Source of the DNA: Escherichia coli
GTDB taxonomy: Bacteria > Pseudomonadota > Gammaproteobacteria > Enterobacterales > Enterobacteriaceae
Reading direction: 5' to 3' (one strand)
Length of the DNA: 64,000 nucleotides
Assembly: GCF_029227855.1 (NCBI RefSeq)
Contig: NZ_CP074356.1
Part shown: one piece after another, positions 7,998-8,195 of the stretch
Layout of the letters: every line of letters starts with the position of its first letter
Position numbering within the stretch: position 1 is the stretch's first letter
Notes under the pieces: model-generated
The model's database searches: none
The model's input: the letters and a program-made list of their open reading frames with translations, nothing else
Told to the model about the DNA's origin: nothing
Program-made: the position numbers and the translations under genes

Positions 7998-8040
7998 TCG
8001 TCGTAACCTGATTAACTGAGACTGACGGCAACGCCAAATT

Positions 8041-8140
8041 GCCTGATGCGCTGCGCTTATCAGGCCTACAAGGTGAACTGCAATTTATTGAATTTGCACA
8101 TTTTTGTAGGCCGGATAAGGCGTTTACGCCGCATCCGGCA
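8041..8140. repeat. REP/BIME-type palindromic units in the fliC 3' UTR
   Basis: Inverted pair gcctgatgcgctgcgcttatcaggcctac ... gtaggccggataaggcgtttacgccgcatccggca, typical REP signatures. Confidence 0.65.
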
Positions 8141-8171
8141 ACTTGAATGGTAATTTGTCAGCAACGTGCTT

Positions 8172-8195
8172 CCCCGCCACCGGCGGGGTTTTTTC
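8172..8195 (+). terminator. fliC: Rho-independent terminator of fliC
   Basis: GC hairpin ccccgcc-acc-ggcgggg followed by TTTTTT. Confidence 0.7.

Follow-up and report, generated by a model that had tools for sequence, protein, structure and literature searches.

Identification of the locus

The locus described here raises the question of whether the long 3′ untranslated region (UTR) behind the fliC gene of this Escherichia coli strain encodes the small RNA (sRNA) FliX known from K-12, or is a repeat element with no regulatory RNA of its own. K-12 FliX is sigma-28 dependent, is processed from the fliC mRNA, and co-immunoprecipitates with Hfq (PMC10578931). The DNA that was analyzed (hereafter "the window") comprises 64,000 nucleotides of contig NZ_CP074356.1, and the positions given below are those of the window unless otherwise stated.

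The fliC product was assigned to the FliC/FljB flagellin family with an NCBIfam score of 650.8 bits against a curated cut-off of 619, and the gene is flanked by fliD and fliA (Table 1). (PGAP gives this flagellin no name more specific than "flagellin N-terminal helical domain-containing protein".) The UTR ends in an intrinsic terminator with seven G–C pairs, a 3-nt loop and a U6 tail, which is the sole terminator-like site on the + strand downstream of fliC and is presumed to be an Hfq-binding 3′ module. An earlier note on this DNA had described a long, REP/BIME-bearing fliC 3′ UTR at 7998-8195, and this description was borne out: the UTR is 197 nt long, measured from the fliC stop to the end of the T-run, and contains two inverted REPs. 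The note had also placed the terminator about 200 nt from the stop, which is correct for the whole UTR with the terminator included, but not for the gap between the stop and the terminator stem, which is 174 nt.

No open reading frame of 40 aa or more was found inside 7998-8316 on either strand, and the interval 8001-8194 carries no annotation in the RefSeq/PGAP records of close relatives. The gap between the terminator and fliA is 122 nt and contains the fliA promoter region; all UTR types aligned share an identical sequence from about 8212 up to the start of fliA.

Table 1. Positions of the features discussed in the text, in order along the window.
Feature	Position	Strand	Remarks
fliD	4855-6270	-	ORF; fliD-fliC-fliA synteny intact, as in E. 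coli
Sigma-28 (class 3) fliC promoter	6413-6445	+	TAAAGGTT-N11-GACGATAA; both elements identical to K-12
fliC (flagellin, 493 aa)	6516-7997	+	ORF; TAA stop at 7995-7997; parental mRNA of predicted FliX
UTR leader, 40-43 nt	7998-8040	+	fliC stop to REP 1; FliX portion from 8001
Predicted full-length FliX, 194 nt	8001-8194	+	Orthologue of K-12 fliX (b4827)
REP 1, GCCTGATGCGCTGCGCTTATCAGGCCTAC	8041-8069	+	y-type unit, iREP orientation; CTAC end at 8066-8069
L linker, 36 nt	8070-8105		Between the REPs; internal palindrome TGCAATTTATTGAATTTGCA
IHF-like site	8081-8093	-	In the L linker; one mismatch to the consensus
Predicted FliX-S, 105 nt	8090-8194	+	Start from primer SM673 and gBlock
REP 2, GTAGGCCGGATAAGGCGTTTACGCCGCATCCGGC	8106-8139	+	z-type unit, REP orientation; starts GTAG at 8106-8109; exact match to the REP pattern
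Single-copy stretch, 32 nt	8140-8171	+	Between REP 2 and the terminator
Variable spacer, REP 2 to seed	8143-8151	+	Five substitutions: CTTGAATGGT vs K-12 CATAAAGCGC
FliX seed region, TTGTCAGCAACGTGC	8155-8169	+	GCA at 8161-8163 is the triplet altered in FliX-M1
Intrinsic terminator of fliC/FliX	8172-8194	+	CCCCGCC-ACC-GGCGGGG stem at 8172-8188; T6 at 8189-8194
fliA (sigma-28)	8317-9036	+	Downstream neighbour; NCBIfam FliA, 363.5 bits, above the curated cut-off

The repeat element in the UTR

The REP tail motif TTATCMGGCCTAC occurs in the 64 kb only at the two UTR sites, compared to 0.06 occurrences expected, while 0.00 would be expected for the full REP pattern. The BIME stretch also folds more stably than shuffled sequences, with z = -4.9 for the + strand and z = -6.2 for the - strand. 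When a 391-nt query that included the BIME was compared by megablast with 5426 complete E. coli genomes, it matched at 161,676 places in 5425 of them, with a median of 28 per genome. The rarity of the motif, the fold z-scores and the repeat count together show that the REPs are not due to chance, and the number of matches identifies the element as a dispersed repeat.

REP 1 and REP 2 are predicted to pair with each other. The first has the form GCCTGATGCG...CTTATCAGGCCTAC, which we take to be y-type, and the second has the form GCCGGATGCGGCG...CTTATCCGGCCTAC of a z-type unit, subtype z1 or z2. REP 1 begins 43 nt past the fliC stop. Stalling of translation by a REP near the stop codon was considered and rejected, since such stalling is said, in work by Liang, Rudd and Deutscher in 2015, to need a distance of no more than about 15 nt between REP and stop.

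Judged from the sequence of its parts, the REP pair with its linker has the layout of a BIME-1. This element, also known as RIP or RIB, consists of a y REP, an L linker and a z1 REP, and an IHF site is often present in its L linker (Bachellier et al., as summarized in PMC3333891). An IHF-like site is indeed present in the linker, although matches to the consensus with one mismatch were found 67 times compared to 59 expected, so that the linker match occurs at chance frequency. The case for the linker site is consequently that made in the literature (PMC3333891), because the consensus scan is not significant alone.

Correspondence with K-12 FliX

In the K-12 reference record, the ncRNA fliX (b4827) lies at 2001912..2002106, is 195 nt long and starts 4 nt past the fliC stop; the same coordinates appear in Table 2 of PMC8175672. 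Positions 8001-8194 of the window aligned with K-12 fliX end to end and without rearrangement, with 186 of 195 positions identical (95.4%). For the short form, FliX-S, the corresponding figure was 100 of 106.

Functional landmarks were placed by means of the cloning and mutagenesis oligonucleotides of Melamed et al. 2023 (PMC10578931). The cloning primer SM044, which starts TTGTAACCTG, puts the FliX +1 at position 8001, and the start of FliX-S, GAATTTGCAC, falls at 8090 and is identical to K-12. The seed mutation M1 (GTCAGCAACG to GTCACGTACG; oligo SM644 and the FliX-S-M1 gBlock) corresponds to positions 8161-8163. All three of these landmarks are conserved, except for the base at +2, which is C instead of U. 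The window and K-12 have the same seed, which also recurs unchanged in ten other sequences of the long UTR type (n = 12). The terminator stem is likewise identical to that of K-12, while the tail is U6 compared to U7 in K-12.

The earlier note had connected this UTR with that of K-12, and the 95.4% alignment, the identical seed, the FliX-S start and the terminator stem support the connection; the alignment clearly contradicts the opposite outcome that it had allowed for, in which the UTR would bear no relation to the FliX region of K-12. By position and sequence, 8001-8194 is thus the orthologue of K-12 fliX. The feature is one that is already known, an sRNA gene (fliX) within a known repeat class (BIME-1).

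The differences from K-12 FliX consist of eight substitutions (at 8002, 8073, 8078, 8143, 8145, 8148, 8149 and 8151) and one T fewer. In the spacer at 8143-8151, the long-type strains have one of two forms, either CATAAAGCGC or CATGAATGGT, which are four positions apart; among the strains aligned, the additional A-to-T change at 8143 is confined to the window and JNEC-KY178. As the alignments have it, the clustered spacer changes are part of a common two-form haplotype in E. coli. They keep the stem that flanks REP 2 in the predicted fold of FliX-S. They lie directly 5′ of the seed and could alter extended pairing with some targets. The C at +2 (8002) is the majority state in the aligned strains and could shift the 5′ processing site, the ends having been mapped for the K-12 type only. 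As for the tail, T6 is the more frequent form in the strains aligned.

The predicted secondary structures are also in agreement. Full-length FliX folded with -70.4 kcal/mol (z = -4.2) compared to -69.7 kcal/mol for K-12, and FliX-S with -44.7 compared to -44.1 kcal/mol, and the helices were the same in both cases. All four folds, from the window and from K-12, had z below -3.7, and the per-base accessibility of the seed was near-identical between the two strains. In the model of full-length FliX, the two REPs pair into one long hairpin, and leader positions 8022-8028 form base pairs with 8155-8161, the first half of the seed. FliX-S, in which REP 2 is predicted to form the 5′ hairpin, does not contain this partner of the seed. 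FliX-S is the more active form in K-12 (PMC10578931), and loss of the modeled leader–seed pairing could be part of its stronger activity. The leader also carries a seed-like direct repeat, at 8023-8033, compared to 8156-8166 in the seed (TGACGGCAACG vs TGTCAGCAACG).

Expression, processing and targets

The sigma-28 promoter upstream of fliC would, from its conserved elements, drive a primary transcript that covers both fliC and FliX. Just upstream of this promoter, at about 6402, the window lacks 19 nt (ACAAAAAATGGCTGTTTTT) that are present in K-12. The rest of the intergenic region between fliD and fliC is approximately 83% identical to K-12, with the promoter elements conserved.

By analogy with K-12, sigma-28 RNA polymerase would transcribe from the class 3 promoter of fliC to the terminator at 8172-8194, and cleavage of the mRNA just past the stop codon would give FliX, about 194 nt long. 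A second cut in the BIME linker, at about 8088-8090, would then release FliX-S of about 105 nt, in which the seed UUGUCAGCAACGUGC lies single-stranded between the REP 2 hairpin and the hairpin of the U-tailed terminator. Together with Hfq, the seed would be expected to pair inside the coding sequences of fliC and of the S10-operon genes rplC, rpsS and rpsQ, and this pairing would lead to lower expression and to fewer flagella late in the flagellar programme. A dispersed BIME-1 would in this way have become part of the scaffold of an sRNA, with the z-type REP acting as a 5′ protective hairpin in FliX-S.

The model for this scheme is the experimental work in K-12. Two bands were described there, one of about 200 nt (FliX) and one of about 100 nt (FliX-S) that is bound to Hfq and includes one REP downstream of fliC (PMC10578931). 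Overexpression of FliX lowered flagellin, fliC mRNA and the number of flagella, and FliX repressed rplC, rpsS-rplV and rpsQ fusions in a seed-dependent manner, while a chromosomal M1 seed mutant had mild phenotypes, with slightly more flagella late in growth (PMC10578931). The authors report having found FliX in RIL-seq data for EPEC and for Salmonella as well (PMC10578931).

Orthology, together with the conserved seed, FliX-S start, terminator, folds and promoter, leads us to expect that the present strain makes both FliX and FliX-S. By the same analogy, 8001-8194 is very probably the fliX gene of this strain, specifying a 3′-UTR-derived, Hfq-dependent sRNA with synthesis, processing and targets like those in K-12. 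An annotation pipeline could therefore transfer the fliX feature to 8001-8194.

The parental gene itself differs from that of K-12. The central region of fliC (6980-7200) was found in 2 of the 5426 complete E. coli genomes, in JNEC-KY178 with 100% identity and in RMDEC465 with 96.4%, and the fliC of the window is, by this comparison, a rare flagellin allele; the window itself probably derives from JNEC-KY178 or from a strain very close to it. Over the first 300 nt, the identity between the window and K-12 fliC is 89%. Pairing between FliX and fliC was calculated with RNAduplex for both K-12 and the window, using the regions -70 to +220 and -70 to +300 as well as the whole coding sequence. No interpretable site emerged: the predicted duplexes were weak (-14 to -22 kcal/mol), contained large loops, and placed the best site differently in the two strains. 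For rpsS, rplC and rpsQ, the published supplement gives cloning primers and no pairing information.

A run of ten G residues at 7086-7095 in fliC, which encodes Gly-Gly-Gly, is common to the window and JNEC-KY178. This homopolymer represents a synonymous change, since RMDEC465 has GGGGGTGGGG at the same place. The tract is a potential site of slippage or frameshifting, or a potential sequencing hazard.

Alternative interpretations

The main alternative is that the UTR contains only a BIME-1 repeat downstream of fliC, with no trans-acting RNA role in this strain. At the RNA level, such a repeat would stop 3′-to-5′ exonucleases or reduce readthrough, and at the DNA level it would be a binding site for IHF or gyrase, placed between fliC, which is heavily transcribed, and the promoter of fliA. 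The standard BIME-1 layout and the dispersed nature of the repeat are in keeping with this interpretation, as are reports that REPs stabilize upstream mRNA and act as partial terminators (bioRxiv 10.64898/2026.03.23.713779; PMC3333891), and many E. coli strains manage with a UTR of about 20 nt that lacks the element. However, this would not account for the leader and the seed, neither of which belongs to the repeat: both are conserved in the long-type strains, and one and the same seed is present in 12 sequences despite variation in the adjacent spacer. The K-12 experiments, moreover, demonstrated trans regulation that depended on the seed (PMC10578931). Protection by the REPs would also be largely redundant, since the 3′ end is already secured by a strong intrinsic terminator. 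We therefore consider it improbable that the element is a repeat and nothing else. A role of the BIME and a role of FliX are compatible and can coexist.

Two further alternatives arise from Rfam. Release 15 contains no model for FliX, and the only matches in the UTR were to the repeat-derived families ES036 and naRNA4. The covariance model of ES036 (CssrF) matched the minus strand at 8062-8103 with 42.1 bits, above its gathering score of 37.6 (E = 1.6e-06 in a local search), which could be taken to mean an independent sRNA antisense to FliX. However, what the 43-nt model covers is the BIME-1 L linker together with the beginning of the y REP (GUAGGCCU), which means that it recognizes the repeat and not the locus. 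Nor did the minus strand show a promoter-like site in the vicinity or a terminator following the match. A separate ES036 sRNA at this place thus appears very improbable. In the literature searched, the term ES036 turned up nothing but grant and strain codes with no connection to the RNA. The Rfam family itself appears to describe a repeat element and not a single sRNA gene.

The other model, naRNA4 (CssrE), matched 8109-8159 on the + strand in part, with 41.7 bits, raising the idea that an RNA comparable to naRNA4 (which comes from REP325), nucleoid-associated and HU-binding, is produced from the REP 2 region. The score lies below the gathering score of 59.5, however, and the match covers about 34 of 77 model positions with one hairpin, the second being missing; we regard this idea as almost certainly wrong. 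Both models are derived from REP/BIME sequences, and their matches are read as recognition of the repeat and not as separate genes; neither reading has support from a promoter. Elsewhere in the window, the Rfam matches above the gathering score were those of the MicL sRNA (365 bits), C0465 RNA (112 bits) and three tRNA genes, at 49848-50155 (+), 36512-36589 (-) and 17988-18287 (+).

Distribution of the FliX-type UTR

A long UTR of the FliX type, defined by at least 80% query coverage, was present in 3502 of the 5426 complete E. coli genomes (approximately 65%). A near-exact copy of the seed and terminator was found in 2629 genomes, a number that is an underestimate because megablast requires an exact word of 28 nt. 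At least 1078 genomes (at least 20%) have instead a short UTR of about 20 nt, which retains a terminator but lacks the BIME and the seed. This short UTR occurs in two types. In type A, the stop codon is followed by TTTACACTTATCGCTCAAA and the same terminator, whereas type B carries TAATCGCCTGAATGCCTCTCAAA ahead of a variant terminator; coverage of at least 80% was reached in 863 genomes for type A and in 215 for type B. The spacer between fliC and fliA is 164 nt in the short types compared to 319 nt in the long type. The short UTRs were compared with window positions 7998-8171 at loci L002-L005 (about 682-700 and 759-780), and approximately 850 genomes fall outside the long, type A and type B queries.

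Since at least 1078 E. coli genomes do without the whole element, it must be dispensable. The module adjoins the recombination-prone variable region of fliC, and exchange of the flagellin gene (H-antigen) could therefore switch FliX on or off. It is possible, though we propose it only tentatively, that FliX is an accessory and not a core part of the flagellar regulon, and that allele exchange switches the link between ribosomal proteins and flagella according to UTR type. If so, strains would differ in the shut-down of flagellar synthesis at its late stage depending on the type of UTR that they carry.

Beyond E. coli, the main text of the FliX paper describes conservation only in "some of the Enterobacteriaceae" (PMC10578931). 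A scan of 100,044 species-representative genomes for the exact seed and terminator pattern gave one match, on an E. coli-like fliC-fliA contig, and because this sole match is E. coli-like the exact-pattern scan is uninformative with regard to conservation across species. The contig (JAIJJM010000281.1, 3920 nt) belongs to a metagenome-assembled genome labeled "Collinsella sp." and includes the end of fliC, FliX and the region upstream of fliA; the most likely explanation is E. coli DNA that was placed in the wrong bin. The terminator on this contig, ACCGTCGGGG, has one mismatch in the stem.

The present strain thus combines a rare flagellin with an essentially K-12-like FliX. More generally, FliX represents a case in which the structural body of an RNA regulator is provided by a dispersed repeat, the BIME-1. 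As FliX is polymorphic within the species, natural pairs of strains with and without it are available for testing its role in flagellar economy, and this polymorphism of presence and absence is the only point here that may merit follow-up.

Comparison with known systems

The closest known system is FliX of K-12 MG1655 (Melamed et al., eLife 2023, PMC10578931), with which the predicted RNA agrees in position and in length (194 compared to 195 nt), in containing the same BIME-1, and in its predicted secondary structures. It differs in the eight substitutions, in having U6 in place of U7, and in that the parental fliC is a different, rare allele.

As a BIME-1, the element in the UTR is typical in having two inverse REPs whose CTAC and GTAG ends face a long conserved linker with an IHF-like core, and in being present as a single copy at the 3′ end of a transcription unit. 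It differs in that it would be transcribed into a defined regulatory RNA, with one REP providing the 5′ hairpin of the processed form.

Other Hfq-associated sRNAs derived from 3′ UTRs include FlgO from flgL, MalH from malG and GadF from gadE (PMC8175672, Table 2). In common with these, FliX uses the terminator of its parental mRNA as the Hfq-binding module and has its 5′ ends generated by processing. Compared to them, FliX is unusual both in carrying a dispersed repeat, the BIME, in its body and in targeting the coding sequence of its own parental mRNA.
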